Of a DNA stretch of 64,000 nt, positions 3,698 through 43,954 are shown one piece after another. The position numbers and the translations under genes are program-made. Under the pieces are notes generated by a model. It had not been told where the DNA came from and searched no databases. It saw nothing but the letters and a program-made list of their open reading frames with translations. The stretch is from an uncultured Methanosarcinales archaeon (GTDB lineage Archaea; Nanobdellota; Nanobdellia; Woesearchaeales; ARS49), in contig CAZJXP010000001.1 in the NCBI GenBank assembly GCA_964550175.1, forward strand, positions 322,774 to 386,773, in the 5' to 3' direction. Positions within the stretch are counted from its first letter, which is position 1. The number at the start of each line of letters is the position of its first letter.

Positions 3698-5330
3698 AGT
3701 TCGTCCGGATGTGCTTCATCGCGTAATCGGCGTCGCCGCGGACCTTTTTTCGCGGGTTGAAGATGCCTTTCTTGTCAAAAATGTCCTTCGTCTGGTTGAA
3801 CAACTGCACGACCTTTTTACCATACATCTGCTCCAAAAACGTCGTTCGCACCAAGCCATCATTATGTTCGGCGGTTGTCGAGCCTTTGAACGCGAGCACC
3901 AAATCGTAGACCTTCTTGCTCACGATCGGGATGAGCTTCCGCTGAGCGGGCTTTTCGAGGTTCATCAAAGGAATGATGTGGAAGTTGCCGTCCCCCGGGT
4001 GGCCGGCAATAGTGTAAAGCAAATCGTACTGGTCAAGGATTTCCTTCAGCTTTGGCAGGAATTCGGGCAAAAACTCGGGCCGGACGATGAAGTCGTCGAT
4101 GAACGGAGCGGTGTGCTTATCCTTGATCTTGTGGCGCAACAGGTTGAAGCTCTCTCTCCTGATGACCCAGAACTCGCGCTCCTCGTCTTCTGAGGCCGTG
4201 ATTCTTGTTCGGACATTGAACGGCTTGATGGCCTGGAGGGTTTCGAACATTCTTGCTTCGATTTCTGCATCGGAGTTGCCGCAGAACTCCGCCATCAAAA
4301 CGAGCTTCGGCATGCCGCCCGTGAGCAGAATCCAGCCTTCCGGAAGCAAATGCCACATCATCGCAAGGATGTGCTTCGGCTTCAGGATTCGGACAAGGTC
4401 GGGGAAGAACTTCATTCCGAGACGCAACGTGTTGTCATCGTAGGACTCGAAGCTGTCCGGCCCGTGCTTCATCACTTCAACGACTAAACTTCCGAGCAGG
4501 TGCATCTCGCGCTCCTTCAGGAAAATGACTAGCATCTTCGATTTTGATTTCACCGGGACCAATCCGAACGTGATTTCGGTCAGCAGGCCAAGAGTTCCTT
4601 GCGAGCCGACGATGAGTTTCGGCAGGTCGAACGTCTGGCCGTCCCAGACATTCCAAAGATAGTAGCCGGCCGAGTTCTTGGATACATTCGGCTTGGCCTG
4701 TTGCAGCAATGCTTGGTTGGTGCTTATGAGCTTGAAGAGTTTGCGGTAAAGGTCGCCTTCGAACCCTTTTTCCTTCAGTTTTTTTTCCAATGCGGACCCT
4801 GAGAGCGGACGAATGGTGTGCTCGTTCCCGTCGCTGAGCACCATCTTGACTTCCTTGACGTAGCGCTCGGTCTTGCCGTACTTCGGGGTCTTTTCGCCGC
4901 CGGAGTTGTTCGAAACCATCCCGCCTACAGTGCACAGCTCTCTTGACGCGGGGTAGGACGGGAGGATGAGCCCTTTCTTTCTCGTTTCCTTATCAAAGTC
5001 GCGGTAGAAGACGCCCGGCTCGGTGATTGCAAAGTCCTTGCCGATCTGCTTGATGTGATTGAAGTTCCGGTAATGAACGACGACGGACTCCGTCAACGGG
5101 CCGCCGGTCATGTCGGTTCCTCCGCTACGTGCGGTCAAAGAAACGTTGTGCTTTGAGGCGAGCGCAACGAGAACCTTGATGTCCGCGACGTCCTTCGGGA
5201 AGACGACGACCTTGGGTTTGAGCTCGAAGATGCTCGCGTCGTGGCTGCACTCGGTCAGAATAGTAGGATCAACAGAAATCTCGCCCTTGAAACGAGACTT
5301 CAATTCAGCGATAAAACGGTCAATCATCAA
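3690..5330 (-). CDS. FAD-linked oxidase (D-lactate dehydrogenase / alkyl-DHAP synthase-like, FAD-binding PCMH type)
   Basis: 546 aa with an N-terminal FAD-binding domain (GGTDMTGG, GTLGLLTEITFGLVP) and a C-terminal FAD-oxidase_C-like region. Confidence 0.75.
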   Translation of the reverse strand: MMIDRFIAELKSRFKGEISVDPTILTECSHDASIFELKPKVVVFPKDVADIKVLVALASKHNVSLTARSGGTDMTGGPLTESVVVHYRNFNHIKQIGKDFAITEPGVFYRDFDKETRKKGLILPSYPASRELCTVGGMVSNNSGGEKTPKYGKTERYVKEVKMVLSDGNEHTIRPLSGSALEKKLKEKGFEGDLYRKLFKLISTNQALLQQAKPNVSKNSAGYYLWNVWDGQTFDLPKLIVGSQGTLGLLTEITFGLVPVKSKSKMLVIFLKEREMHLLGSLVVEVMKHGPDSFESYDDNTLRLGMKFFPDLVRILKPKHILAMMWHLLPEGWILLTGGMPKLVLMAEFCGNSDAEIEARMFETLQAIKPFNVRTRITASEDEEREFWVIRRESFNLLRHKIKDKHTAPFIDDFIVRPEFLPEFLPKLKEILDQYDLLYTIAGHPGDGNFHIIPLMNLEKPAQRKLIPIVSKKVYDLVLAFKGSTTAEHNDGLVRTTFLEQMYGKKVVQLFNQTKDIFDKKGIFNPRKKVRGDADYAMKHIRTNFT

Positions 5331-6278: not shown

Positions 6279-7964
6279 TCACAGCCCCAAGCTTTCGATC
6301 AACAGATTCGCGTCGAACTTCTTCAGGTCGTCGTAGTTCTGGCCCGTGCCGAGATACAAAATTGGTTTTTTCGTGACGTAACTGACGCTGATTGCCGCGC
6401 CGCCCTTTTCGTCGATGTCCGCCTTGCTGAGGATGATGCCGTTGATGCCGACGGCTTCGTCGAACTGCTGCGCTTGTTGAACGCAGTCGTTGCCCGTGAT
6501 GGATTCGCCGATGAACAGAATCAAGTCAGGCTTCGCGACGCGGACAATCTTCTTCATCTCGTCGATGAGGTTGATGTTGGAGTGCAATCGTCCGGCCGTG
6601 TCGATGAGGACGACGTCCTTGTTCGCGGCTTCGGCGTGCTTGATGGCGTCGAACGCGACGGCGGCCGGGTCGGAACCGTAATCGTGCTTGATTAATTTGA
6701 GATTGAGCTTGTCGGCGTGCGTTTGCAATTGGTCGATTGCGGCCGCTCGGAACGTGTCGGCCGCGGCCATGACGACGCCGAGCTTCTCGTTCTGCAGCAT
6801 ATGCGCGAATTTGGCGATGGTTGTCGTCTTTCCGGAGCCGTTGATGCCGACAAAGCAGATGACGTACGGCTTCTTAGCTTTGATGTTCGCGAACAAATCA
6901 ATCTGCTCGACGTCGAACAATGAGCTTAATGACTGTTTCAATGTTGAAAGGATCGTTGATTCAATGCTGCCGCGCGGGATGGGCTGGTCGACGAGAACGG
7001 TTTTCAAGTCGACCTTTATCTTTTCGATGACTTCCACCGCGACGTTGTTTTCAAGCAGCGCGACCTCGACGTCCCAGAACAAATCCTCGAACTGCTGCTC
7101 GGAGATTTTCTTTGTCGTGACGGCCTGCTTCAGTTTCGCGAAGAATCCTTTCTTTTCTTCCGGCTTTTCGATAGGTTTGACCGGGATCGGTCGCGAGCGC
7201 TCGACAGGAATGTAGCGTTTCTCAGGCTTTGCCGGCTGCGCTTTGCTCTCCCCGGCAGATTTTGTCGCGTCAGGAGTATCATATTTCGGCTCTTGCTCGA
7301 CGACCTGAACATCCTTGATTCGCTCCAAAACTTTTTTCGGCTCGTAGTCCTCGGGCTCGCCTTTCTTTTCTTTTTCCTTCTTAGGCTCGGCGGGCTCGAT
7401 CGGCTCGAACAACTGCTCGATCTGCGGGCGCTCGTCCTCGATGTGGTCGTGGATCTTGATTTTTCGTAACGGTGAGCCTTCGACTTCGATTTCCGATTCT
7501 TCGATGACGACGTCCTCGACTTGCTCGGGCTCGGGAATCGGCTCCTTCTTTTCTTCCGCGACCTCTTCCGGCTTGACGAACTTTTCCTTCAACCGCTTGA
7601 AGAAACCTTTTTTCTCTGGTTGGATCGTGATGGATGGCGGAGAATTTTCTGACGGCTCACTGCTAATATCAGGCGGGGTTTCAACGGCAGGGGACTCCGA
7701 GTCACTCTTTACCGGCACGCTTTGTTCCGTCGTTTCAGCAGTTTCGTCAGTCGAGTCTTCAACCTCTGATGAACTTCCGATCGGGGCGGCAAAAAGTTCT
7801 GATGGGGTTTCAACGGCAGGGGATTCGGCGGGCTCTTCTTCCGGCTCAGAAATCTCGAGCGGCTCTTCCGAGGATTCTACCACTTCCTCCTTCGCGGTCT
7901 CTTCCGCCTTCTTAGAAAACGAGGATAATGCGCCCTTCAGTTTGTCCTTCAAGAATTTGAACAT
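6279..7964 (-). CDS. ftsY: Signal recognition particle receptor FtsY with a long acidic low-complexity N-terminal extension
   Basis: C-terminal NG domain with GINGSGKTTT, DTAGR and SKADIDEKGG motifs; N-terminal ~260 aa is E/P/S-rich. Confidence 0.9.
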   Translation of the reverse strand: MFKFLKDKLKGALSSFSKKAEETAKEEVVESSEEPLEISEPEEEPAESPAVETPSELFAAPIGSSSEVEDSTDETAETTEQSVPVKSDSESPAVETPPDISSEPSENSPPSITIQPEKKGFFKRLKEKFVKPEEVAEEKKEPIPEPEQVEDVVIEESEIEVEGSPLRKIKIHDHIEDERPQIEQLFEPIEPAEPKKEKEKKGEPEDYEPKKVLERIKDVQVVEQEPKYDTPDATKSAGESKAQPAKPEKRYIPVERSRPIPVKPIEKPEEKKGFFAKLKQAVTTKKISEQQFEDLFWDVEVALLENNVAVEVIEKIKVDLKTVLVDQPIPRGSIESTILSTLKQSLSSLFDVEQIDLFANIKAKKPYVICFVGINGSGKTTTIAKFAHMLQNEKLGVVMAAADTFRAAAIDQLQTHADKLNLKLIKHDYGSDPAAVAFDAIKHAEAANKDVVLIDTAGRLHSNINLIDEMKKIVRVAKPDLILFIGESITGNDCVQQAQQFDEAVGINGIILSKADIDEKGGAAISVSYVTKKPILYLGTGQNYDDLKKFDANLLIESLGL

Positions 7965-10336: not shown

Positions 10337-10467
10337 TGGACCCGGACAGATTTGAACTGTCGACCGGTGGTGTGCCTAGGTTAGCCTACCTGTGCAGACG
10401 TGAGTCTGCGTTGTGATGAGCAGCGCCATATAAGACCACTGCTCTAGCCGGACTGAGCTACGGGTCC
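10337..10467 (-). tRNA. tRNA-Ile-like (anticodon TAT) with a 56-nt intron at canonical position 37/38
   Basis: Reverse complement gives acceptor GGACCCG/CGGGTCC, D-arm GCTCAGTCCGGCTAGAGC, anticodon stem GTGGT...ACCAC interrupted by an insert after CTTATA, T-arm GACAGTTCAAATCTGTC. Confidence 0.7.
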
Positions 10468-13216: not shown

Positions 13217-13747
13217 ATGGACGCCCTCTTCGTTAAAACCGTAATCGGCTGGCTCGTGTTGTTATTGCAAATCCTGATCATGTTCTCACTGTTTTCTTTG
13301 TTCATTCCGTCGATACGGAAATCGCGCGCATTCGCCTTGCTCAAGAAAAACGCACTTTTGATCTCATTCCTGATTGCCCTCACCTCAATGCTCGGCAGCC
13401 TGTTCTTCTCGGAAATCCTGGGCTGGGAGCCGTGCGTGCTGTGCTGGTACCAGCGCATCGTGCTCTATCCGCTCGTGTTCATCTTCGGAACGGCGCTGCT
13501 GCGCAAAAAAACGGACTCGTTCACGTATGCGATTCCTTTGGCAATTGTCGGGCTGTTCATCGCCGCGTACCATTTCATCATCCAACTACTGGCAAAATTC
13601 GGAACGGAAGTCGCGTGTTCAACGAACGGAGTCCCGTGCAACGTCTCACCGACGTGGATGTTCGGCTACGTGACGATCCCACTCATGGCATTCACCGCGT
13701 TTACCGCAATCCTTTTATTCGCTTGGATGCACGGAACAAAAGAATGA
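13217..13747 (+). CDS. Disulfide bond formation protein B-like (DsbB/BdbC family) membrane oxidoreductase
   Basis: Four TM helices, PCVLCWYQR motif and a second Cys pair (CSTNGVPC). Confidence 0.75.
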   Translation: MDALFVKTVIGWLVLLLQILIMFSLFSLFIPSIRKSRAFALLKKNALLISFLIALTSMLGSLFFSEILGWEPCVLCWYQRIVLYPLVFIFGTALLRKKTDSFTYAIPLAIVGLFIAAYHFIIQLLAKFGTEVACSTNGVPCNVSPTWMFGYVTIPLMAFTAFTAILLFAWMHGTKE

Positions 13748-16829: not shown

Positions 16830-19800
16830 TTATATGGTGGAGGACTTGGTTCTCGACGCCGATGAAGGACGTGGCAAGCTGCGATAAGCTTCGGCGACCC
16901 GCACGCAGGGGTTGACCCGGAGATCTCCGAATAGGACTTCCTTTTAAGACCGCAAGGTCGGGGAACGGGGGGAATTGAAACGTCTTAGTACCCCCAGGAA
17001 AAGAAACCAATAGGGATACGGTGAGTAAGAGCGACTGAAAACCGCATACGACAAACCGAATCTTGCATTGAAAGATGCAAGGCATGTGGTGTGATAAGGA
17101 CTTTCATTTAGGCTACGCTCGATACGACAAAGTCGCCTGGAACGGCGCGCCAGAGAGGGTGATAGCCCCGTCGTCAGTGTTGAGAGAGCTGAGAAAGTAT
17201 CCTGAGTACTGTCCCTCGGAAATGGGGCAGGAAGATGGGAGGCATCTACTTCCAATCGTAAACACGTCGAGAGTCCGATAGCGTACAAGTACCGTGAGGG
17301 AAAGTTGAAAAGAACCCGTGACAGGGAGTTCAAAGAGCCTGAAACCATATAAGGATAGTCCTCTAATGCTTCAAGGAGTGTTAGAGTCCGTTGCGAATAA
17401 TGTGCCAGGGAGTGCCGGGGATGTGGCGAGGGTAAGCAGATCATCTGCGGACCCGTAGCGAAAGCGACACGCACGCAGGTAACAAGGTGCGCGGTATGAA
17501 AGTGCCGGAAGTCACATCATGGCAACCCGAAACCACTCGATCTAATCCTGAGCAAGATGAAGCGGGGGTAAAACCCCGTGGAGGTCTGAAGAGGTTCTGG
17601 ATGCATCCGTTCTTCTGACTTGGGATTAGGGGTGAAAAGCCAATCGAGAGTGGTGATAGCTGGTTCCTTCCGAAATTGGCCATAGTCAAGCCTCAAGCGA
17701 GATGGCGTTCGCTGTAGAGTCACAGATTGGGGGCTTAGGCTTCGAAAGAGGTCGGCCCTTTGTCTAACTCCGAATACGAGCGCGTCGTAGACCTTGGGAG
17801 TCGGGGCGTCGGCGTAAGGTTGATGTCCAAGAGGGGAACAACCCAGACATACATTAAGGTCCCTAAGTACCAATTAAGTGTGAAAGGCGAAAGGTTGTTC
17901 ATTGCCACAGACAGCGAGGAGGTAGGCTTAGAAGCAGCCACCCTTTAAAAAGTGCGTAACAGCTCACTCGTCAAGGCAATGAGTACCTACAATGGACGGG
18001 GCTAAATTGGTCACCGATATGTATGGCATCTCAAAAGGATGCGGTAGGAAGGCGTTCGGTGCGCGTAGAACGTGGCTTGAAAGGGCCACGGGAGCGCTTC
18101 GAAATGAGAATCCTGGCGTGAGTAGGATCATAGTGCTGTGAGAATCAGCATCGCTGAAAGGGCAAGGGTTTCTAGACACTGTCGATCAGTCTAGAGTTAG
18201 TCGGTCTTAACTGCGACCCCCACTGGGTCGTGTGAGGAAAAGGCAACAGGTTAATATTCCTGTACCATGTGTGTATGTGCGGCAACGCAAGCGTCATTAC
18301 CGACGCTTCGGGGTCAGTCGACACGAACTGTCGTTCGTGCTAAAGAAGATACAACCGAGGAGTATCGTCATGATGAGAATCGGTTGAACACTCTGAATGG
18401 TTCCGCTTTGCGGAATTCGGCCTATCCCTGGAGCCCGTGAAAAGGGAAAGACGAAAAATCACATATGTCCGTACCCAGAACCAGCACTGGTGCCCCTAGG
18501 TGAGAAGCCTCAAGTGTGAAGGAGACAACCCGGGCGAGGGAACTCGGCCAATTGGTCCCGTGCCTTCGGTAGAAGGGATCCCTGCGGCCGTGTGCATATG
18601 CATGGCGGCGGCAGGGCGCAGAGACCAGGGGTTCCCGACTGTTTAACAAAAACACAACTTCGTGCGAAGCTGAAAAGCTGTGTATACGAGGTGACGTCTG
18701 CCCAGTGCAGGTATCCGAATACCCTTTTCAAGGGGTTAAAGGACCTGTAAACGGCGGAAGTAACTATAACTTTCTTAAGGTGGCATTTACGACTGCCTTA
18801 GTGGGGTGTGAGACCCCTTCGATTGATTCACGCGCGCCGTGAACGACGAAAAAATCTGGCTATATGCTGGAACATCTGTTGCTGTTTTCGAATTTTAAAA
18901 CGAAAACAGCGTCAACGCAAGTTGATATCCGGTTGCATTGGTAACGGTGCAAACGCAGACAATCAGCAGGAAAGGCCGAGGCGACTTTTCGGAGTGTAAT
19001 AACTCCGAAGCGAAGCTTCGGAATCCTCAGAGACTGCATGCCAAGACAGCATTTTATGGAGAGCTCATCACTCACCGACATCAGCAATGATGGAAATGTT
19101 GAAGATACAGTCCGAGCTTAACAGCGATGTTAAGAACGTGACAGAAATGATCATGTCGTCAAGCAATTGACGTAACAAAAATGAGCGAAATGCCTTGTCA
19201 TTTGATTGGTGACGTGCATGAAGGGCGCAACGAGGTCCCCACTGTCCCCGCCCGGAATCCTCTGAAACCCCCTTCTGGTGCAAAGGCCAGAGAAGTCCAG
19301 TAGGAAGTGAAGACCCCGTGAAACTTTACTGTAGTCTGTCGCTGTGACGTGGAGATCATTGCATAGGGTATGCAGGAGCCGTTATGCGGAAACTTTCGGG
19401 TTTCCGATAGGCACCGATGTAACACTGCACTCTGATTTCCGCGCCGCTCACCCGATTGGGGACACCGATTGACGGACAGTTCGGCTGGGGTGGCACGCCG
19501 ATGAAAACATATCATCGGCGCCCAAAGGTTGGCTCAGACGGGTCAGAAATCCGTCGTAGCGTGCAAGGGCATAAGCCAGCCTGATTGGAATCCGATCAAG
19601 AACGATTCCAAACGCGAAAGCGTGGCCTAGCGAACCTCACTGCGCCTCTTGATGAGGCCGTGGGATGACCGAAAAGTTACTCCGGGGATAACAGAGTTGT
19701 CGCGCCTGAGAGTTCACATCGACGGCGCGGCTTGCTACATCGACGTCGGCTCTTCCTCTCCTAGGTGTGCAGTAGCATCTAAGGGTACGGGAGTTCACCG

Positions 19801-20105
19801 GTTAAAAGGGATCGTTAGCTGGGTTCACAACGCTGTGAGGCAGTTGGTATACGATCCACTGGACTTGCATAAACTTCTGAGGGGAAGGAAGACATAGTAC
19901 GAGAGGAACTGTCTTTCGTGGCCTCTAGTCTACCGGTTATCTGACAAGGTATTATGCCGGGCAGCCACGCCATATGGGATAAACACTGAAAGCATCTAAG
20001 TGTGAAACCCACCTCGAAAAGAGAAGAAAGGACGCTCATAGAAGATGAGTTCGATGGAAACGGGGTGTACGTGTTTAGGTAACGAGACACTCAGCCTGCG
20101 TTCCC
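16830..20105 (+). rRNA. rrl: 23S ribosomal RNA, interrupted by a ~402-nt intron
   Basis: GATGAAGGACGTGGCAAGCTGCGATAAGC near the 5' end; conserved GTAACTATAAC, CCCCACTGTCCC and GACCCCGTGAAACTTTACTG blocks; GAAAGCATCTAAG near the 3' end. End coordinates approximate (+/-20 nt). Confidence 0.9.
18782..19183 (+). other. Intron within 23S rRNA, between CTTAAGGT and AGCGAAAT (domain IV)
   Basis: The universally contiguous CTTAAGGT|AGCGAAATTCCTTGTC is split by ~402 nt with no 23S similarity. No LAGLIDADG-like ORF inside (only 63-75 aa junk ORFs). Confidence 0.75.
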
Positions 20106-20338
20106 CAAAAGTCCGTTATTACTTTATTTTATGTTTTGTAGGATGATCATTCAGGCAACTTTATGATCAATGCGCCTTCGGCGCTCTCATGCACGGTCGT
20201 TTCTTTTTTTTATTCTAGTTTTATTTCATTTTCAATGGATTCAGCGTGAGCTGGATTCTGAAAAATCATTTTTGAATGGAGCTAGCGAGAGCCATATTAT
20301 GACTGAACAGTTAATGAAAAAGCAATAAATAGAGTTAA

Positions 20339-21130
20339 TTAATTACTAGGAATAATTATTGTTCCAGAAATATCTCCTTTTTTGATTTCTTCAGAACTTA
20401 TAAGCATCACACGTTTATTTGTTTCAGTTAAGAAACTTTGACATTTATTAATAAGCTCGGTTGTTTTTGCTAACAAATCAGCATTTTGAGATTGAACTAC
20501 ATTCAAATCAAGATATTGCAATTCTGCTAATGTTATTCGACTATCATGTCTATCTTTATTCATGAACAAAGAAACCACTTCGTGCGTATGTCCAAAATCA
20601 TCATATTCTACATGTTTAAATTTAAACAAGGATGGTTTTGTGTTTATCATCCCCATGATTTTAAATTTTGCAAAGTTAAATATTTGTTTAGCATTTTCTT
20701 TTAGCAACGGGTCTTCCGATTTAATATGTTTAATGGCTCTAAACCAACCCCCCTCATACTGACAAACTGGGTCAATTTGAGTTATTACTGTATTGGGAGT
20801 TAGAGTTAATTCATCTGCTTTCAAAAATAAGCAACATAAGGAAGAGCAGCAATGAACTGGCACGTATACTTGAAAGGAGGATAGATTTTCTCTCAATATG
20901 TACGCCATAATAATTGCTGTTTTAAAATCGCCACCCTCACCATGAAGTATGACCGTTAAATTTTTACTAATGCTTGACTGCATAAAATCCATAAGCCATA
21001 TTTCATCATTTTCTTGGATTTCCTTATGATGAGCATAAATTAAAAAAATAAATTCGCGACCAAGGATTAACTTTATTTCTGCCTTAACTGAATAAATTTC
21101 TTTATTCAATAAGTCTAATTTATCTTGCAT
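20339..21130 (-). CDS. ClpP/S49-fold (crotonase-like peptidase fold) protein in the AT-rich island
   Basis: Segment LHGEGGDFKTAIIMAYIL...VYVPVHCCSSLCCLFLKAD...TPNTVITQIDPV parallels ClpP INSPGG...MAASMG...PNS.IMIHQP. Cys-rich where ClpP has the catalytic Ser region. AT-rich codon usage. Confidence 0.4.
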   Translation of the reverse strand: MQDKLDLLNKEIYSVKAEIKLILGREFIFLIYAHHKEIQENDEIWLMDFMQSSISKNLTVILHGEGGDFKTAIIMAYILRENLSSFQVYVPVHCCSSLCCLFLKADELTLTPNTVITQIDPVCQYEGGWFRAIKHIKSEDPLLKENAKQIFNFAKFKIMGMINTKPSLFKFKHVEYDDFGHTHEVVSLFMNKDRHDSRITLAELQYLDLNVVQSQNADLLAKTTELINKCQSFLTETNKRVMLISSEEIKKGDISGTIIIPSN

Positions 21131-21285
21131 ATTAACCTAAACGTGTCACTACATATATATTTAATGCTGCATTACAAATGATATCTAAATAACATACAAT
21201 TAATATACAGGAAGCTTTATAAATCAATTAAACCGTATAAAGTCATAATAACAGACGTACCTATCGGCAGCTGTGGAGGTGCTAT

Positions 21286-21498
21286 ATGGGCAAACAAATA
21301 AATATTCGTCTTTCGGATAAAGCAGTGAAAGAATTAGAGGACTTAAGAACTCGATTAAATTTAAGTTCGATTTCTGATGTGATTCGTGGTAGCATAGCTC
21401 TTCAAAAATTCATTGAAGATGAAAAAAGTAAGAATAAAGAAATTGTTCTAAAAGATAAACGAACTAACAAAGAACAAGTTATTGTAACCCTTAGGTAA
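21286..21498 (+). CDS. Small ribbon-helix-helix-like DNA-binding protein (70 aa)
   Basis: N-terminal beta-strand/helix pattern INIRLSDKAVKELEDLRTRL typical of RHH (CopG/Arc). Confidence 0.4.
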   Translation: MGKQINIRLSDKAVKELEDLRTRLNLSSISDVIRGSIALQKFIEDEKSKNKEIVLKDKRTNKEQVIVTLR

Positions 21499-21503
21499 AC
21501 CTA

Positions 21504-21767
21504 ATGCCAAAAGAAGAGTTTATTGAAATTACGGAAATTACTGACGGAAAAAAAACGCAGCACAAGTATCCAAATTTTGAACCAGAATTAAGTGTGAAAC
21601 CTCAAACAACAAAATGGTTTTTTTACACATTTAATTGGATATCACTATTGTTCTGTTTAACTTTTATTATTTTGATATTTTTGGAAAAACCGTTGCCAGA
21701 ATACTTCATTGGATTTATAGGTTCCATAATCGGATATTTCATTGCAAAAAGACCATATGAACTATAA
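21504..21767 (+). CDS. Small 2-TM membrane protein (87 aa)
   Basis: Two hydrophobic helices; 5-nt gap after the RHH gene suggests an operon. Confidence 0.4.
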   Translation: MPKEEFIEITEITDGKKTQHKYPNFEPELSVKPQTTKWFFYTFNWISLLFCLTFIILIFLEKPLPEYFIGFIGSIIGYFIAKRPYEL

Positions 21768-21785
21768 TTTACGTACGAGTTATCT

Positions 21786-22313
21786 ATGCAATTCAAGAAA
21801 AAGGGAATCATTCATGTTTCCATTCAAGATATCATGCTTGAAGACGGAACTACTATTGGCGTATTTGAAGGAAATCGTGGCGCGAATCCCGATCACGATA
21901 TTCTCATTAAATATCAAGAAAAAGCAAAGCGGTTACGCACGCCAAAACACGTTCATTGGGTTATTGACTTGCTAATTAAAAAACAGCATAACCCCGAACT
22001 AACGATTAAGTTCATGACTTATTTACGAAATATGTACGATCGTGTTGAAAAGTTCACCAGTAAAGAAGATAGAGCAAAATGTATTTTGAAAGAAACGACA
22101 AAAGTAAAATTAGCGCCATTTAAGGAGCTCGATAAGTATGGTGAGTATAAAGTAGAATTCGTTGGTCATCTTATTGAACTCATGATTAAGATGGAAAAGA
22201 ACACCCCGCCAGACAAACCTGCTCGCGTGTTCAGAGAATTAATTGATGCTATGATTCAAGAAAAAGACATATTTTCAATCGTGAGCAGAGCAACTCAAAT
22301 CGGCGGCCGTTAA
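21786..22313 (+). CDS. Hypothetical protein (175 aa), convergent and tail-overlapping with the Dam methyltransferase
   Basis: AT-rich ORF; stop overlaps the MTase stop region. Candidate partner of the MTase, which is speculation. Confidence 0.4.
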   Translation: MQFKKKGIIHVSIQDIMLEDGTTIGVFEGNRGANPDHDILIKYQEKAKRLRTPKHVHWVIDLLIKKQHNPELTIKFMTYLRNMYDRVEKFTSKEDRAKCILKETTKVKLAPFKELDKYGEYKVEFVGHLIELMIKMEKNTPPDKPARVFRELIDAMIQEKDIFSIVSRATQIGGR

Positions 22314-23197
22314 TAATTTGTCACAACAACTTCATTAATCAGTCCGCGACCGTCACTTCTGCAATTAATCATGCGTTTTGCCTGAACCGTATGAATATTG
22401 TATTTTGAGTAGAGTTCTCGAATAAACGTCGTGTCGCTATTGCTTAACATACAGAGAACGCCCTTTTTATCTAGCTTCTTGAAGACGTCAGCGAGTGCGA
22501 GCTGTTCCTTGTCAAGGAAGTCTCCTTTTGCATATTTTGTGAAGCTGGGTTTTCTGTCAAGCGGATAGTACGGCGGATCGAAATAGACGAAATCTCCTTT
22601 CTGACATTTATCAAGAACAACTTCAAAACTGCCCGTTGAGGTCTTAAATTGCTTCAATATCTTGTTTAATTCCTGAATATTGTCTTTTTGAATTATGTTT
22701 GGATTTTTGTACTTGCCACAGGGCACGTTAAATTGTCCTTTGCTATTGACACGGTGCAAACCGTTAAAACATGTTCTATTGAGATAAACAAAACGTGCGG
22801 CACGTTCTTCCTTTGATAACGTCTTCACATCAAGCGCACGTACTTTGTAAAAATGAGCTGCTGAATGCTTTTTCTTATGTTCTGTCAACAATTTTGTTAA
22901 ACGTGTAGGATTGTCACGAACAACTTCATATGTGTCAATAAGCTCAGAATTAACATCCGAGATGAACAGTTTCTTTTCCGGAAATTGTTTCGCTAGATGG
23001 AACGCGACAATTGCACTTCCTGCGAACGGCTCAAAGTAGTTGTTGAACGATTCGGGAAAGAGAGGAATAAACTGAGCAAGAAGCTGCCGTTTGCCACCTG
23101 CCCATTTTACAATGGTTGGCGCAGTGATAACTTCTTTAACGATCGCAGTTTGCAACGGAACACCCTCTTTAATGAAGGAAGATATTGCGAGCTGCAT
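22310..23197 (-). CDS. DNA adenine methyltransferase (Dam / D12 class N6-adenine MTase)
   Basis: Motif I FEPFAGSA and motif IV DPPY; overall Dam-like length and order. Confidence 0.85.
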   Translation of the reverse strand: MQLAISSFIKEGVPLQTAIVKEVITAPTIVKWAGGKRQLLAQFIPLFPESFNNYFEPFAGSAIVAFHLAKQFPEKKLFISDVNSELIDTYEVVRDNPTRLTKLLTEHKKKHSAAHFYKVRALDVKTLSKEERAARFVYLNRTCFNGLHRVNSKGQFNVPCGKYKNPNIIQKDNIQELNKILKQFKTSTGSFEVVLDKCQKGDFVYFDPPYYPLDRKPSFTKYAKGDFLDKEQLALADVFKKLDKKGVLCMLSNSDTTFIRELYSKYNIHTVQAKRMINCRSDGRGLINEVVVTNY

Positions 23198-38388: not shown

Positions 38389-39090
38389 ATGGAACTATCC
38401 CAGAAGCCCAAGAATGTAACAGTCATAGCAGGTTTTCCCGGCTTCGGACTTGTCGGCACTGTGGCAACTGGTTTTCTCGTCGACCATCTGGACGCCGAAC
38501 GCATCGGAAACCACTGGTTCGAGGAGCTGCCCGCGACTATCGCGCTGCACGACGGCAAAATCGTCGATCCCGTCGGCATCTACTACTCCAAGAAATACAA
38601 TCTCGTCATCGTCCACAGCATCGCGAATGCTACTGGCGTCGAATGGCTAGCTTCTGATTTAGTATTGCAAGTGTGCAAGGAACTTAGCGCGAAGGAACTG
38701 ATAGCGATCGAAGGCGTCGGCAGCCAACGCATGGAGCTGCAGCGCGCGTTTTACTTCTCTACCGACGGTAAAAATGAGAAAGCGTTAGCGAAAATCGGCG
38801 TCGAGCCCTTGAAGGAAGGCATCATCGTCGGCGTCACGAGCTCACTTTTGCTCAAAGCGAAACTACCAATCACTTGTTTGTTCTCTGAAACTCATACGAA
38901 TCTGCCGGACTCCAAGTCAGCCGCGAAAGTGGTTGAAGTCTTGGACAAGTATCTTGGCTTAAACGTTGACTATCTGCCACTCCTGCAGCAGGCAGCCGAG
39001 TTCGAAGCAAAGGTCAAGACCATCCTTCAAAGCCAGGCCAAGACCCAAACGGACTCCGAAACCAAGAAGAATTTGAACTACATCACGTAA
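38389..39090 (+). CDS. Proteasome assembly chaperone family protein (PAC2/PbaA-like)
   Basis: VIAGFPGFGLVGTVATGFLV N-terminal signature of the archaeal PAC2 family. Confidence 0.7.
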   Translation: MELSQKPKNVTVIAGFPGFGLVGTVATGFLVDHLDAERIGNHWFEELPATIALHDGKIVDPVGIYYSKKYNLVIVHSIANATGVEWLASDLVLQVCKELSAKELIAIEGVGSQRMELQRAFYFSTDGKNEKALAKIGVEPLKEGIIVGVTSSLLLKAKLPITCLFSETHTNLPDSKSAAKVVEVLDKYLGLNVDYLPLLQQAAEFEAKVKTILQSQAKTQTDSETKKNLNYIT

Positions 39091-39270
39091 TTCTGGCATT
39101 ATGCTCACTTTTAGCCTTGTTTGATACTTGATGATGGTTTGTTCTGAGGGTTAATTCTCCCTTTTTTCGACCTTTGAGCTAGTGCCTAATGGGAATAGTT
39201 GAGTTTGAGACTGGTTGGCTACCTGATAGCTCACAATTCTAGCTCACCCAAGCAAGTCTGCCCAAGCCAA

Positions 39271-39365
39271 CTCTTTACCGCCACGATTGGACGCGTTCGG
39301 GCATCGACCGTTTTTGTGATCCAGCCAACTGCTCAAAATCTGCCGGGGACGACGGCAAAAATGAC
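39271..39365. repeat. Intergenic palindromic element copy (right end degenerate)
   Basis: CTCTTTACCGCCACGATTGG ... CTCAAAATCTGCCGGGGACGACGGCAAAAATG. Confidence 0.6.
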
Positions 39366-40510
39366 GAACAGGCGACTGCGACCTCCCCAAACTGCCCTTC
39401 GGCACCCAAAAACTCACTCACAAACTCCCCCTCGAATGCGCCGTTACCTTGCAAAATCAAACGAACTCTCACTTTTTGCCTTCAAATGATTTATTTTAAA
39501 TATGCAAGGTAATTACTCGAGCATGCCTTGAATAACTAGAATATCGAGGTTCAACAAGATAAATAACAATAGTTATTTTCTGTCCATTAGTTTAGACTTA
39601 CTCATTATCAGATAGTTATTTTAAAAACTATTTCTTATGCAACAATAATTCTTTTAAATGAATTTGTCACTAAAAATTAGGTAGCAAAGTCAATCAATTT
39701 TGTTCTTCAATTGCGAATTTTGAAATGCAATTGAGTGAATTGTCGATTTTCTCGCCTGATTGAGCGCGGATCAAAAATGACCTCAATTGCACCAAAACAA
39801 GGGTTCAATTAATGACTTTTTTCCTGACGCTAGCGCGCGAAAACAGTCCAAAAATAGACCGCACAACGCGCCTAAAACCTCTTGCGCGCGAGTTTTCAAC
39901 CGGCCGCGATAAACCCTCAAACAAACAAAAATCTCGCGTGAAATCGCCCCTGTTTTCGCCATAAAAACCGCAAAACTATCGTCGTAACCATTGAAACCAA
40001 CCCCATTTTCAAACCTGTCAGCGATAATCCCGAATTTTCTTCATTTGTGCGAATAAATGGATCTTTTCGTGTGGCAGCAGGCTTCGGCGCGACGACCCCC
40101 GTGACCTCGTCTGCAGGGATTAAGGAGGAAAGTCCGGCAGAATGGCGACTGGGACGGGATTTGGCACGACCGGACGGGTTTCGCGCGAACACGACAGTTT
40201 AGGGGTTTGTCAAAAGTGTCGGCAAAATCCCGACGACACGAATTGAGCCCCTCAATGCCACCAAAACCAATCATCCAGCCTAGTGTGGCCCTGGTGTTTG
40301 TACCTTTTACGCAAAAAAGTGGCTAGAATCGGCTGTAAACGCGTCGCGTGAAGGACTTGGATTGATGGTTACCCCCCATTTGCGCACCTGCGCAATAACT
40401 TCTGCATTTTGATTAAAACTTTTAATTCGGATGTAACCCCCGAAACCTGTCAGGGATTGTTCCGAAAGGTTTAAATCACACCGCATGCATCCAAAATCAG
40501 CAAAAAACAG

Positions 40511-41023
40511 GTGACCATCGTGAAAATCCAGCTTGAACACGCCGAATCTCTCCCTGACGCAAGTGTCGAAGAGCTCGCAAAAACGCTTCTTGCTCGATTC
40601 GGACTGCTGCCACGCAAGAAAGACGGCTCGGCCGCAATGCACAAACTGCTACTCGAACTCTACGAACGCAAGAAGGTCGCGAACCGGGACCGGAAACCCG
40701 AATCTGCCGTGATTCCCGTCGAGCTCATGGGACACCTGGCCGGCATCAAGCGCCAAACGATGTACGAGTATCTGCACCGCTGGCTTGACCTTTCCATTCT
40801 CAAAAAGACTTCCTTCGTCGCGGACGGCAAAGTCGTGATTGGGTATGAGCTGAACGGCGCGAATCTTGAAGGAGCTTTTAGGAAAGCAGAAACCTCAATC
40901 CGCAACCACCTCGAAACGAGCCTAAAACTCGTCGACACGCTGCAGAACGAAGTCAAGAAGGACAAGCTCAGGCAAGGGTTCAAGGAAACTGCTGAGACGC
41001 CCGCAATCCCCCCATCTCCGTAA
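40511..41023 (+). CDS. Winged-helix DNA-binding protein with C-terminal helix (170 aa)
   Basis: wHTH segment LAGIKRQTMYEYLHRWLDLSILKK...VIGYELN. Confidence 0.5.
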   Translation: MTIVKIQLEHAESLPDASVEELAKTLLARFGLLPRKKDGSAAMHKLLLELYERKKVANRDRKPESAVIPVELMGHLAGIKRQTMYEYLHRWLDLSILKKTSFVADGKVVIGYELNGANLEGAFRKAETSIRNHLETSLKLVDTLQNEVKKDKLRQGFKETAETPAIPPSP

Positions 41024-41153: not shown

Positions 41154-41705
41154 TTAAGCACTATGCTGATCCCAGTAGGTAAGCTTGGTGTCCAGTTTGA
41201 CGATATTTTGCTTCGCCTGAGCTTGGCGGAACTGCTTGTCCAGGCCCAAAAACGCGTTGCCGCTGGAGTACTTTTTCTCGACCGGAACTCCCTTCGAAAT
41301 CAATGCCGTGATGGAGCGTGAAACGATCTCAACGGACGTCGTCAATTTGCGCGCCAATTGGTGGTACGTGACGAACGGCGTCGTCTCGGTGAGCGTGTAG
41401 AGCGCGAAGAAGGCTTCTTTTTCCGGGCCGGTCAGCGGCTGGACCTTGAATTCCGGCATCACTTCCGCAGGCTTTCCGTGGCGGACGAGCATCGTCAGCT
41501 CATCCAGCCGTTCCTGCAGCTTGTCGAGCCGCGAATTCAGCTGGTTCAGGAGCTCGAAATTCGACTCGATTTCGCTCGTGTTTTCATTCAGCGCGGAACG
41601 GTGGTCGTCAAGCTGGTCCTGGATGCTCAAAAACGTCTTGTCAAGATCTTGTCGAAGGTCATCGTGCTCGCGACGGAACAATGTTTGCTGTCCCTCATTT
41701 TCCAC
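41154..41705 (-). CDS. Coiled-coil plus C-terminal wHTH regulator (paralog A)
   Basis: N-terminal coiled coil, C-terminal TTPFVTYHQLARKL...SRSITALISKGV HTH. Confidence 0.5.
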   Translation of the reverse strand: MENEGQQTLFRREHDDLRQDLDKTFLSIQDQLDDHRSALNENTSEIESNFELLNQLNSRLDKLQERLDELTMLVRHGKPAEVMPEFKVQPLTGPEKEAFFALYTLTETTPFVTYHQLARKLTTSVEIVSRSITALISKGVPVEKKYSSGNAFLGLDKQFRQAQAKQNIVKLDTKLTYWDQHSA

Positions 41706-41776: not shown

Positions 41777-42529
41777 TCAGCGCTCATGTCGCACCTTTTT
41801 CGCACGGGCGCCGCCCCACAAATACCGCTTTTCCTTGCCCTCATCAACGACCGTGATGTCCTGGGTTCCTTCGATTTCCTCAAGCAACCGGTAGAAGCTG
41901 CTCTTCGAGCACAGGCCCTGCTCGTGCACGATGCTTTCGCGCAACGCGACGCCGGAAACCTGACCATGCATTCGAATGAGATTGAAGATGCTTTCCTTGA
42001 TCAAATCTTTGCTATTTCTGACTGCCATTTTGATGACTTTTTCTTGCAGCGCGGAGCCCATTTCCGGCGGCGTCCTGAGACTGCTGGGAATGACAGTTTG
42101 TCGACGGACATTCCCAAGTTCTGAGACCTGGGAATGAAGCTGTTTGAGCTGCGCGAACACGTCAATTTGCTGCGTTTCGATCGCGGACATTTGCGGCGCG
42201 ATCCTGCCGAGCGCATCAATGCGATGCTCGATCTCGCGCACGCGCTCAAGCACCGGTTCGACCGAATAATGCGCATCAACCAAGGCCTTCACGTCCTCTT
42301 TCGTGAGCCGCGGAAGCGAAGAAATCACGTGCGATTGGTCGTCCAACTCGCGCTGCAGGCGCTGGTTCTCCGCCGCAAGGTAATTCACCCATTGCGACAG
42401 CAGGCCCATGTCCTCTTTTGCCGACGAGAAGGACGTCCTTACGTTCTCCTCGACCTGGCGGATCTCCTCTTTTGTGGCCAAGCCAAACATGCGGTTGGCA
42501 ATCGCCAACCCATTTAAAAACCTTTTCAT
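41777..42529 (-). CDS. Coiled-coil plus C-terminal wHTH regulator (paralog B), preceded by an operator-like repeat array
   Basis: Same architecture as 41154..41705; start codon sits directly downstream of the TCCCAGGAC repeat cluster. Confidence 0.5.
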   Translation of the reverse strand: MKRFLNGLAIANRMFGLATKEEIRQVEENVRTSFSSAKEDMGLLSQWVNYLAAENQRLQRELDDQSHVISSLPRLTKEDVKALVDAHYSVEPVLERVREIEHRIDALGRIAPQMSAIETQQIDVFAQLKQLHSQVSELGNVRRQTVIPSSLRTPPEMGSALQEKVIKMAVRNSKDLIKESIFNLIRMHGQVSGVALRESIVHEQGLCSKSSFYRLLEEIEGTQDITVVDEGKEKRYLWGGARAKKVRHER

Positions 42530-42680
42530 TCCCTGGGATGGTCCCAGGACATTCCCAGGACCGTCCCAGGACTATGCTGGGAATGAGCACAAGCTAAAAC
42601 GAGTGTAAAATACATTTAAACGTGATTCTCATTCCCAATTGGGACGGTCTCAGGACCATCCCAGGACTATCCTGGGACTA
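42528..42680. promoter_or_regulatory. Operator-like array of about 8 YCCCAGGAC / GTCCTGGGR sites symmetrically flanking an AT-rich TATA-like spacer, immediately upstream of the 41777..42529 wHTH gene
   Basis: TCCCTGGGA, TCCCAGGAC x3, CTGGGAATGAG | spacer TAAAATACATTTAAAC | CTCATTCCCA, TCTCAGGACC, ATCCCAGGAC, ATCCTGGGAC. Confidence 0.6.
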
Positions 42681-43261
42681 TAGTGAAAGGAAATATATAA
42701 ATAGTAGTTGCGACAAACAACCGAATTAGTTCAGGATCAAGCGGATCCGGAACGGCCAAAATCGTTGGTTTTTAGGTTCCCCCCGGTTCCTGAAAATCAG
42801 CAAAAGGTGGCTAAAACAGGCAAAACTCCTGGTGCCTACCAACGCCAGGAAAAAGAGCCAAAATCAAGCGAAATCAGCCGGGTTGTGAGCAAAATCAAAT
42901 AGCTGCCACGAATTCCGGCAAAAGAGCAGAAAGCAAGGGAAAAAGAGGGTGAAAAGTGATTCGTGCGAGGGATTGTGAAGGAATACCCATAGCCAGTAGA
43001 GTATGCCATAATCCCTCCCCGTAGAGCAAAAAGTGAGAGTTCAGAAGGTGGTTTTTGAGCCTTCATCCCAGGAGATCCCGGGAAAGAGTGAGGCTCAAAC
43101 CCCCTTTGAACTGCAGAAGCCACCCTGTGAGCCAGAGTGAGCCCTGCAAGGACCCGTCAGAAGGCTGAAACAATGCCAAACCAAGGGCGTTGTGAAGCAA
43201 AAGTGAGCGTGAGACTGTGAAAGAGCAAGCTTTATTAGGCACTAGTCGGAAGCAGGGTTGA

Positions 43262-43954
43262 ATGGCCCCTGGACACACCACCCGCTTCTATATAGAGACG
43301 CTTCCGACCGAAGGCATCGTCAAGATGCCCAAGGAAGCGTCGCGACACGCGAAAGCCTTGCGCCTGAAGGACGGAGACCTCATCCAAGTGTTCGATGGCA
43401 CGACCGAGTACACCGCAAGGCTGCTCACGAACCACGAACTCGAGATAGTGGCTAAAAGTGAGCACACGAGCCATTCTGGTGCCCAAGTCACCCTCGCAAT
43501 AGCTTTTCCCAAAGGACCACGAGTGGACTGGCTCGTTGAAAAGGCAACCGAGCTTGGCGTGCACGAGATTATCCCTCTTATTACGAAACGCACCGTCGTG
43601 AACCCGCGCGACACGAAAGTCGAACGACTGCAAAAGCTCGCGATCACGGCGTGCGAGCAATGCGGACGCAGCACGATTCCCAAGATCTCGCTGCCCATTG
43701 CCGTCGACAAACTCCTCGCGCGAACGAACGAGTTCGATGCCTGCTTTGTTGCGGATGGATCCGGAAACAAACTCTCACTTTCAAAATCCGCAAAGAAAAT
43801 CCTCGCCCTCATCGGACCCGAAGGCGGATTCTCCGACGAGGAAATCACAAAAGCAAAGAGTACTGGCTGCCACATAATCTCACTTGGAACAACGACGCTT
43901 CGCACCGAGACTGCTGGACTCACGATACTGGCCCAGCTCAACGCACTCCTATGA
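43262..43954 (+). CDS. rsmE: 16S rRNA (uracil-N3)-methyltransferase RsmE
   Basis: PUA-like N-terminus, SPOUT C-terminus with IGPEGGFS motif. Confidence 0.8.
   Translation: MAPGHTTRFYIETLPTEGIVKMPKEASRHAKALRLKDGDLIQVFDGTTEYTARLLTNHELEIVAKSEHTSHSGAQVTLAIAFPKGPRVDWLVEKATELGVHEIIPLITKRTVVNPRDTKVERLQKLAITACEQCGRSTIPKISLPIAVDKLLARTNEFDACFVADGSGNKLSLSKSAKKILALIGPEGGFSDEEITKAKSTGCHIISLGTTTLRTETAGLTILAQLNALL

Follow-up and report, generated by a model that had tools for sequence, protein, structure and literature searches.

Phased arrays of 11-bp units as candidate autoregulatory operators upstream of a predicted winged-helix gene in DPANN archaea

We analyzed a stretch of 64 kb (here called the window) in which ten 11-bp units with the core GTCC(CA/TG)GGA are found at 42530-42681. 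They form two arrays of five units upstream of a gene on the minus strand, referred to here as gene A, and they lie within an ORF-free region of 772 bp that is unusually long and conserved in position. Gene B follows gene A closely, is conserved beside it (it was found in 60 loci), and is probably cotranscribed with it. A third gene, gene C, is conserved in synteny together with gene B, and both carry HTH-like regions. On the other side of the arrays, the next gene is rsmE. The window comes from an archaeon and also contains an archaeal rRNA operon.

41777-42490, minus strand: gene A, 237 aa counted from the ATG at 42490, with predicted coiled coils and a C-terminal winged helix.
41154-41705, minus strand: gene B, 183 aa, 71 bp downstream of gene A, with a coiled coil and a weak HTH_11 match.

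The product of gene A matched no Pfam, NCBIfam, or PHROG family, and it has no sequence relative among solved structures. In the search against PHROGs, where gene A gave nothing significant, gene B showed a weak O-like match (E = 0.0014), and BLASTP detected no paralogy between the two proteins. In the AF2 model of the gene A protein (mean pLDDT of 79.8), a disordered linker (127-146) connects two long helices of the coiled-coil type (residues 7-58 and 77-126) to a winged helix (147-225) with pLDDT above 90, which makes the product a predicted winged-helix protein and a putative DNA binder and multimerizer. A Foldseek search with this model retrieved generic winged-helix domains and nothing else, with no E value below 0.006; these weak matches included cullin WHB, BlaI/MecI, the archaeal virus proteins F93 and F-112, and TubR (E = 0.087). 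A ribbon-helix-helix binder, suggested by short palindromes repeated at every helical turn, was considered and discarded, as the model has neither the N-terminal strand nor an RHH fold. Across 56-67 homologs, down to 29% identity, the recognition helix LCSKSSFYRLLEEIE shows little or no variation, unlike the HTH regions encoded by the syntenic neighbors B and C, which are variable (that of gene B is not conserved in sequence). Those homologs of gene A that bear a name are labeled Woesearchaeota or Nanoarchaeota.

The repeats themselves are arranged as follows.

42530-42587, minus strand: proximal array, five 11-bp units, with orthologous arrays in relatives.
42588-42627, minus strand: inter-array spacer, 40 bp, 30% GC, with taaaatacatttaaac at 42607-22.
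42628-42681, minus strand: distal array, five units.

Read in the orientation of gene A, the proximal units are cattcccagca, tagtcctggga, cggtcctggga, atgtcctggga, and ccatcccaggga, the first being of the array-initial type CTCATTCCCA; the distal units are tagtcccagga, tagtcctggga, tggtcctgaga, ccgtcccaat, and tgggaatgag, the last of which is inverted and pairs with 42578-42587 as a 10-bp inverted repeat. On the plus strand, the left array runs from TCCCTGGGA (42530-42538) through three exact copies of TCCCAGGAC (42542-50, 42553-61, and 42564-72) to CTGGGAATG, with the word CTGGGAATGAG at 42577-87, and the right array is made of CTCATTCCCA (42628-37), ATTGGGAC, TCTCAGGAC (42648-56), TCCCAGGAC (42659-67), and TCCTGGGAC (42670-78). 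All the words that a first-pass annotation had listed are present where it had placed them. Its count of about eight sites has to be raised to ten (5 + 5), and its view that they are genuine, nonrandom repeats at the promoter of gene A is borne out.

Exact copies of TCCCAGGAC number four in the window, every one of them inside the arrays. Allowing one mismatch, there are 22 matches, while shuffled sequences contain 9.65 ± 3.07 and not one of 100 shuffles reached 22. Pairs of cores 11 bp apart were observed five times against an expectation of 0.32, always within the arrays, which are also the sole cluster of TCCCAG in the 64 kb. The annotation had named a generic genomic repeat as an alternative that would undo its interpretation, and this distribution speaks against it. 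It had also proposed a genome-wide motif scan for a regulon; in the 64 kb scanned, out of a contig of about 969 kb, and in the flanks of related loci, we found no further cluster of sites from which a regulon could be defined.

The two arrays had been described as symmetric, mirrored halves around a TATA-like spacer. The edges of the spacer do form a perfect 10-bp inverted repeat (TGGGAATGAG / CTCATTCCCA, arms 40 nt apart), and each unit is quasi-palindromic, GTCC-(CA/TG)-GGAC, so that its orientation can flip without a change of register. The two arrays are nevertheless related by a direct repeat of 42 nt with 81% identity at an offset of 106 bp, and promoter words recur in the same direction at nearly the same offset (102-103): CATTTAAA at 42511 and 42613, TTYTCATTCCC at 42523 and 42626. 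Because arrays and promoter words repeat directly at near-equal offsets, the array and its promoter are duplicated in tandem (P2, then P1) rather than mirrored. The apparent symmetry thus comes from quasi-palindromic units in a tandemly duplicated array and promoter, and in the family as a whole 82% of the cores are head to tail and co-oriented with gene A.

Three candidate promoters are interleaved with the arrays or adjoin them.

42521-42529, minus strand: BRE-like element of P1, purine-rich atgaaaagg; a 'cgaaat / gaaaag' element is conserved before the TATA box in 51 loci.
42511-42520, minus strand: TATA box of P1, TTTTTAAATG, 30 nt before the ATG at 42490.
42613-42620, minus strand: TATA box of P2, TTTAAATG, the second promoter copy, located in the spacer and recognized by the duplicated words.
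42683-42702, plus strand: P3, a divergent promoter with BRE gtgaaaggaa and TATA atatataaat, adjoining the distal array.

The ORF of gene A opens at an ATG at 42529, which both the ORF finder and the first-pass annotation took as the start codon. This ATG is in frame but lies within the BRE-like element of P1, and the first 13 codons of the ORF overlap the conserved promoter. Since M14 is the position at which 56 aligned homologs begin, with MF/MW-G..., the start at 42529 is probably wrong, and the true start of gene A is most likely the ATG at 42490. In gene orientation, the order is then array, atgaaaagg, TTTTTAAATG, 20 nt, and ATG(42490). In 40 of 51 related loci, the TATA box has its first base 29-32 nt ahead of the ATG, with a mode of 30. 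In archaeal promoters, the TATA box is centered near -26/-27, and therefore the distance found here has the geometry of a leaderless mRNA, implying that the gene A transcript would be leaderless from P1.

The TATA-like box of the spacer, in which the earlier description had placed the promoter, is conserved and oriented toward gene A, but the principal promoter is most likely P1, whose BRE and TATA (42511-42529) are located outside the spacer, between the proximal array and the ATG. The P2 box is kept as ATAAATG in the nearest relative (L001) and in two other loci (L002 and L010), and transcripts from P2 would be expected to start around 42586-42590, on the border of the proximal array. P3 points the other way, toward rsmE and not gene A, across 560 bp without an ORF. 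The same box, as CAAAAGG-TTTAAATAG-TAGTT, adjoins the outermost array in eight related loci (L001, L007, L015, L016, L025, L045, L060, and L063).

We compared the region with that of one genome (L001), the loci of seven homologous proteins, and 80 metagenome loci, from which a nonredundant set of 63 homologous loci with 30-64% protein identity to gene A was obtained. More than 60 other archaeal sequences of the DPANN type have the same arrangement in front of a relative of gene A, and the arrays can be recognized by eye in relatives of 57-64% and also of 34-40% identity. Over the 63 loci, the density of TCCCA/TGGGA in four 100-bp bins upstream was 1.05, 1.87, 4.49, and 3.89 per 100 bp, compared with about 0.15 elsewhere, so that the TCCCA core is enriched 10-30x within 400 bp upstream of gene A. 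Successive cores on the same strand were spaced by 11 bp 273 times; spacings of 10, 22, and 33 bp were counted 63, 37, and 30 times, respectively. The unit consensus across the family is W-Y-A-(G/T)-TCCCA-(A/G)-n, and arrays in relatives usually open with (C)TCATTCCCA. The flanks of the unit track the GC content of the genome (GTCCCAGGAC here, in a GC-richer lineage, and ATTCCCAAAT in AT-rich relatives), while the DNA core is invariant. A typical array has 3-5 exact cores, with two arrays in 31 of 61 loci and three in 10 of 61; relatives have up to 22-25 cores.

The register between arrays and promoters is conserved too. In 29 of 51 loci, 12-13 nt separate the end of the last core from the TATA box of P1, which places this end at the upstream edge of the BRE, and 11 of the 51 have an extra inverted unit (TGGGACT) between TATA and ATG. 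A TATA-like box between arrays was found in at least 20 of the 63 loci, typically 2-5 nt past one core and 25-27 nt short of the following one; the inter-array spacer is 17-33 bp in many relatives. A second, palindrome-like element, TTATCGWCGATAA / TTTCGTCT, lies between arrays in 37 of the 63 loci. The arrays are always directly upstream of gene A and are not found upstream of gene C. They are retained beside gene A in 26 of the 39 loci where no upstream rsmE homolog was detected; it is gene A and not rsmE that they go with.

The ORF-free DNA on the far side of the arrays has features of its own.

42703-43081, no strand assigned: ORF-free DNA past the arrays; its A/T tracts have a phasing of about 10.5-11.5 bp.
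43066-43083, plus strand: words at the tip of a hairpin, TCCCAGGA-GA-TCCCGGGA, with TCCCAGGAG at 43066-74.

The phasing of the A/T tracts was detected in the window alone (power of 0.359 against 0.145 in block shuffles, P of about 0.003) and in the 400 bp past the arrays of 56 loci (0.398 against 0.193 ± 0.012 in block shuffles), at periods of 10.25-11.5 bp. This DNA is probably intrinsically curved, and the phased tracts suggest a wrapped complex bigger than simple feedback needs. The hairpin near rsmE, in whose loop the first-pass annotation had noticed the array word, is real (43038-43112, -35.3 kcal/mol, z = -3.9) and does contain the word. Its two adjacent sites, about 390 bp from the arrays, are unlikely to have arisen by chance, such 8-mers being expected 2.5 times per window, but the TCCCAGGA-GA-TCCCGGGA pair is absent from L001, the nearest relative, and may be a lineage-specific auxiliary site. 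No known RNA family of Rfam was matched, at gathering or permissive thresholds, by 42450-43300, 39000-40600, or any of four related loci. An RNase P reading of GAGGAAAGTCCGG at 40125-40137 was also considered and rejected, as it had no Rfam match and no exact copy in relatives.

Considering that the same arrangement precedes relatives of gene A in so many sequences, the arrays are most likely the site through which this gene controls itself. We give a probability of roughly 0.6 to their being phased operator arrays for cooperative autoregulation by the gene A protein, and the proposal of a multimerizing, autoregulatory putative DNA binder made from the sequence at first sight has turned out to be the best reading, with arrays that follow gene A in 63 loci and a nearly invariant helix. 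The arrays, their phasing, their fixed register with the promoter, and their conservation with gene A are direct observations; the identity of the binder, its cooperativity, and the sign of the regulation are what we infer from them. Each 11-bp unit would take up a single winged helix of the gene A protein, and the 11-bp phasing would place all units on the same face of the DNA, head to tail. The long N-terminal coiled coils would then couple the subunits on the DNA, giving a multimer that is cooperative and probably bends the DNA. There is precedent for winged helices that bind head to tail in PhoB on pho boxes and TubR on tubC.

Such a multimer would meet the transcription machinery at several points. 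At P1, the last proximal unit extends as far as the upstream edge of the BRE, where occupancy of the array would touch TFB/TBP. At P2, which sits between the arrays with its start site on the first proximal unit, occupancy would cover both the BRE and the start site. The divergent transcript from P3, next to the distal array, may also respond. With arrays and promoters interleaved in this way, occupancy would determine how strongly genes A and B are transcribed as an operon, which amounts to autoregulation. We favor negative feedback on this operon, because P2 is sandwiched by arrays and because relatives have inverted units between the P1 TATA box and the start site. The sign of the regulation is uncertain, though, since the array of P1, at about -45 to -95, is in the position of an archaeal activator and not of a classical repressor.

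Gene B, gene C, or an unlinked factor might bind the arrays instead, which would make them regulatory without autoregulation. Genes B and C are syntenic with gene A and have HTH-like regions, and the second conserved element between the arrays indicates that more than one factor probably acts there. Nevertheless, the HTH helices of B and C vary whereas the TCCCA core is invariant, and the arrays always directly precede gene A, never gene C. In gene A, an invariant helix would match an invariant core of 5-7 bp, which suggests that it is the gene A protein that reads the units; as an invariant helix offers no covariation with the motif, the assignment to gene A over B, C, or an unlinked factor is made by parsimony. 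We consider binding by another factor unlikely.

The 10-25 sites in 2-4 arrays and the phased A/T tracts exceed what simple feedback needs and hint at an additional architectural role. Taken further, the arrays, the phased tracts, and the gene A protein could together form a large wrapped nucleoprotein landmark in the chromosomes of DPANN archaea of the Woesearchaeota type, a hitherto undescribed element (centromere-like, chromosome-organizing, or an initiator-independent origin) made from a protein family without known relatives, with autoregulation as its visible by-product; we regard this as rather improbable. The narrower idea of a centromere-like or architectural site, at which a wrapped or filamentous complex would serve chromosome segregation or organization and autoregulation would again be a by-product, draws on the plan of 5 + 5 11-bp units around a promoter-bearing spacer of about 40 bp, similar to the published parC layout. 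The 22-25 cores of some relatives, the phased A/T tracts in the flanking 400 bp, the single-copy locus with its conserved position, and the presence of TubR among the weak fold matches would fit as well. Against this, neither the cassette nor its neighborhood encodes a ParA, ParM, or TubZ-type NTPase, no homology of gene A to ParR, TubR, SegB, or AspA was detected, and transcription control alone accounts for the fixed BRE/TATA register. We regard such a site as improbable.

Iterons of a replication origin, with unwinding of the AT-rich spacer or neighboring DNA and gene A as the initiator, are much less credible still. Iteron-like phased repeats do lie beside AT-rich DNA in a position-conserved ORF-free region of 772 bp, and an unrelated high-GC phage contig (L100) has six ATCCCAGGA repeats at 11 bp within its replication-initiator gene, so that words of this kind can be origin iterons. 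The gene A protein, however, does not resemble that initiator (hhalign probability of 0.2%) or any replication family, and no Orc1/Cdc6 was found in the 64 kb when ORFs of at least 280 aa and those around the locus were scanned. The units are not ORB-like, being 11 bp long, tightly tandem, and 82% co-oriented; the spacer is a duplicated promoter that measures only 17-33 bp in relatives; and the cumulative GC skew of the window falls monotonically from 23 to 64 kb without an inflection at 42.6 kb. A link to viruses was examined as well and dropped: 24 two-unit stretches from viral contigs include a few real 11-bp iteron arrays, on high-GC contigs resembling those of bacterial phages, and none of the 24 has homology or linkage to gene A. 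Finally, although the word is simple and quasi-palindromic, a chance occurrence, a generic repeat, or a functionless remnant of a mobile element is barely conceivable for a cluster that is the only one in 64 kb, has counts that 0 of 100 shuffles attained, and keeps its core, phasing, and position over 63 loci at 30-64% protein identity.

Autoregulation by gene A, if correct, would bear on a group with tiny genomes and few recognizable regulators. To our knowledge, DPANN archaea lack genetic systems and the control of their transcription is almost uncharted; a full-text literature search found no description of the gene A family or of its motif. From sequence alone, it was possible to define a lineage-wide protein family without Pfam, NCBIfam, or PHROG matches, together with its probable DNA word (core TCCCA, 11-bp phasing), which can be used for scanning complete genomes. 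The comparison also provides a predicted promoter grammar for the host lineage, consisting of a BRE, a TATA box of the form TTTAAATA, 30 nt, and a leaderless ATG, and reveals a control region that is unusually elaborate, with 10-25 sites and tandem and divergent promoters. Should the complex prove architectural, resembling a centromere or an origin, archaea would have a chromosome element of a new kind.

Among known systems, archaeal oriC shares with this locus the repeats on either side of an AT-rich stretch and the long intergenic region, and the TCC-n-GGA dyad of the units is reminiscent of that of the ORB. It differs in several points: ORBs are 22-35 bp long (mini-ORBs from about 13), whereas the units here are of 11 bp and tightly phased, orc1/cdc6 is not adjacent, and there is no skew inflection. 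A close layout is that of ParR-parC from plasmid R1, a type II partition centromere and autoregulated promoter, with two arrays of five repeats of about 11 bp around a region of about 40 bp containing the operon promoter. As in ParR-parC, the site is directly upstream of the gene for its presumed binder, and cooperative, DNA-bending binding would be expected. ParR, in contrast, is a ribbon-helix-helix protein whose operon encodes the actin-like ATPase ParM, while the gene A locus has a coiled coil plus winged helix and no NTPase and is chromosomal and vertically conserved. In terms of type II/III partition sites in general, the repeat layout is found here (with typically 2-3 arrays of 3-5 units in relatives), but not a cytomotive NTPase or a homolog of ParR or TubR.

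In TubR-tubC, a type III partition system, and the pho boxes of PhoB/OmpR, winged helices are set head to tail on direct repeats of 11-12 bp with a conserved core of about 7 bp and a variable linker, in clustered arrays upstream of the regulated operon. The gene A arrays are similar, but the locus has no TubZ GTPase, receiver domain, Trans_reg_C match, or sequence homology to these proteins. A further parallel would be autoregulated archaeal factors such as Ss-LrpB, Lrs14, and MDR1, which have Lrp/AsnC, Lrs14, or metal-dependent folds and use 2-3 palindromic boxes of 13-17 bp. Like them, gene A has phased sites at or near the BRE, the TATA box, and the start of its own leaderless or short-leader gene, and the cooperative occupancy with DNA deformation known from these factors is proposed here likewise. 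It differs from them in its 10-25 mostly direct 11-bp units, its tandem promoters, and a protein without any Pfam match. Regulators whose own promoters carry phased operators or iterons are a familiar kind of system, and what appears to be undescribed is the protein family, its DNA word, the multiarray layout with tandem promoters, and its conservation across a DPANN lineage.

Database gene calls for the family of gene A, which codes for a protein with a coiled coil and a winged helix, make the proteins too long at the N terminus (two protein entries of the family, P0001 and P0006, are given as 250 aa and 264 aa), and the over-extended calls open inside the operator array or the BRE; the regions concerned are as follows:

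42488-42529, window, gene A
4001-4070, related locus L004, gene A family member

Since both the conserved TATA and the alignment of homologues place the start at an MF/MW residue, we consider this residue to be the start of the family. Farther upstream, between the arrays of 11-bp units, the spacers of AT-rich relatives hold a second conserved element, the palindrome-like TTATCGWCGATAA or TTTCGTCT, which is probably a site for another factor. It was found in 37 of the 63 loci (L007, L015, L027, L045, L060, and L078 among them) and is absent from the window.

The region between gene A and its upstream neighbor rsmE measures 564 to 988 bp (median, 762; 18 loci), which is very long given the compactness of these genomes. 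Beyond the arrays, the ORF-free stretch 42703-43081 and the equivalent 400 bp of 56 loci carry A/T tracts phased at ~10.5 to 11.5 bp, with a signal about twice the off-band and shuffle level. Downstream of P3, the divergent promoter that abuts the distal array and points away from gene A, the palindrome CGGATCCG is conserved in the window and in two related loci, and G-rich GGAACC/GGTTC palindromes lie nearby in the window and L001. The copies of CGGATCCG are located as follows:

42742-42749, window
about 4700, L001
about 3713, L002

Repeated words also flank the syntenic cassette formed by genes A, B, and C. There are six copies of CTCACTTTT in the window versus 0.74 expected, all of them confined to two regions, one on each side of the cassette and in opposite orientations, and exact TAGTGCCTAA is found once per side:

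38841-39476, plus strand, region with CTCACTTTT
39180, plus strand, exact TAGTGCCTAA
43029-43462, minus strand, region with CTCACTTTT
43235, minus strand, exact TAGTGCCTAA

Upstream of rsmE in the relatives, the modules AAAAGTGAGAGTTCA ... TTAGGCACYAG ... AAAAGTGAG recur. The loci named for these flanking words and modules are the window, L002, L004, L007, L015, L045, and L060.

The stretch 39460-40510 lacks a long ORF, and its positional counterparts in L001, L002, L004, L010, and L011 share 60 to 65% identity with it over 0.5 to 1 kb; the alignment contains blocks of invariant bases and no 3-nt periodicity. At 40125-40137 there is an RNase P CR-I-like word, GAGGAAAGTCCGG, of which no exact copy was found in the relatives, and an Rfam search of the stretch gave no match. 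RNAalifold found a weak consensus, with 16 compensated pairs, yet the covariation term was positive. The stretch may encode a structured RNA of a new kind, or it may be what is left of a decayed gene. An AT-rich segment of 300 bp at 39480-39800 holds direct repeats of the ATAGTTATTTT type as well as several inverted repeats (the enclosing kilobase has 41.8% GC).

Other features were observed elsewhere in the window:

10337-10467, minus strand, tRNA match, 131 nt for a 71-position model
18772-19134, group I intron inside the 23S rRNA gene, Rfam 52.1 bits (gathering threshold, 50)
20000-23000, low-GC island directly after the rRNA operon, 31 to 38% versus about 52% GC
22310-23197, D12-class N6-adenine DNA methyltransferase gene, within this island

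The length of the tRNA match suggests that this gene contains an intron. The LSU rRNA match covers 3,316 nt for a 2,987-nt model, and the low-GC stretch was possibly acquired.

Arrays of 11-bp iterons sharing the TCCCAGGA core also occur in high-GC viral contigs:

7049-7115, L100, six units within a gene that has a match to PHROGs for phage replication initiation (E = 1e-24)
13660-13700, L110
L090/L107 and L101, further viral contigs with such arrays

No homology was found between the L100 initiator and gene A; hence, we regard the viral arrays as convergent with those upstream of gene A.
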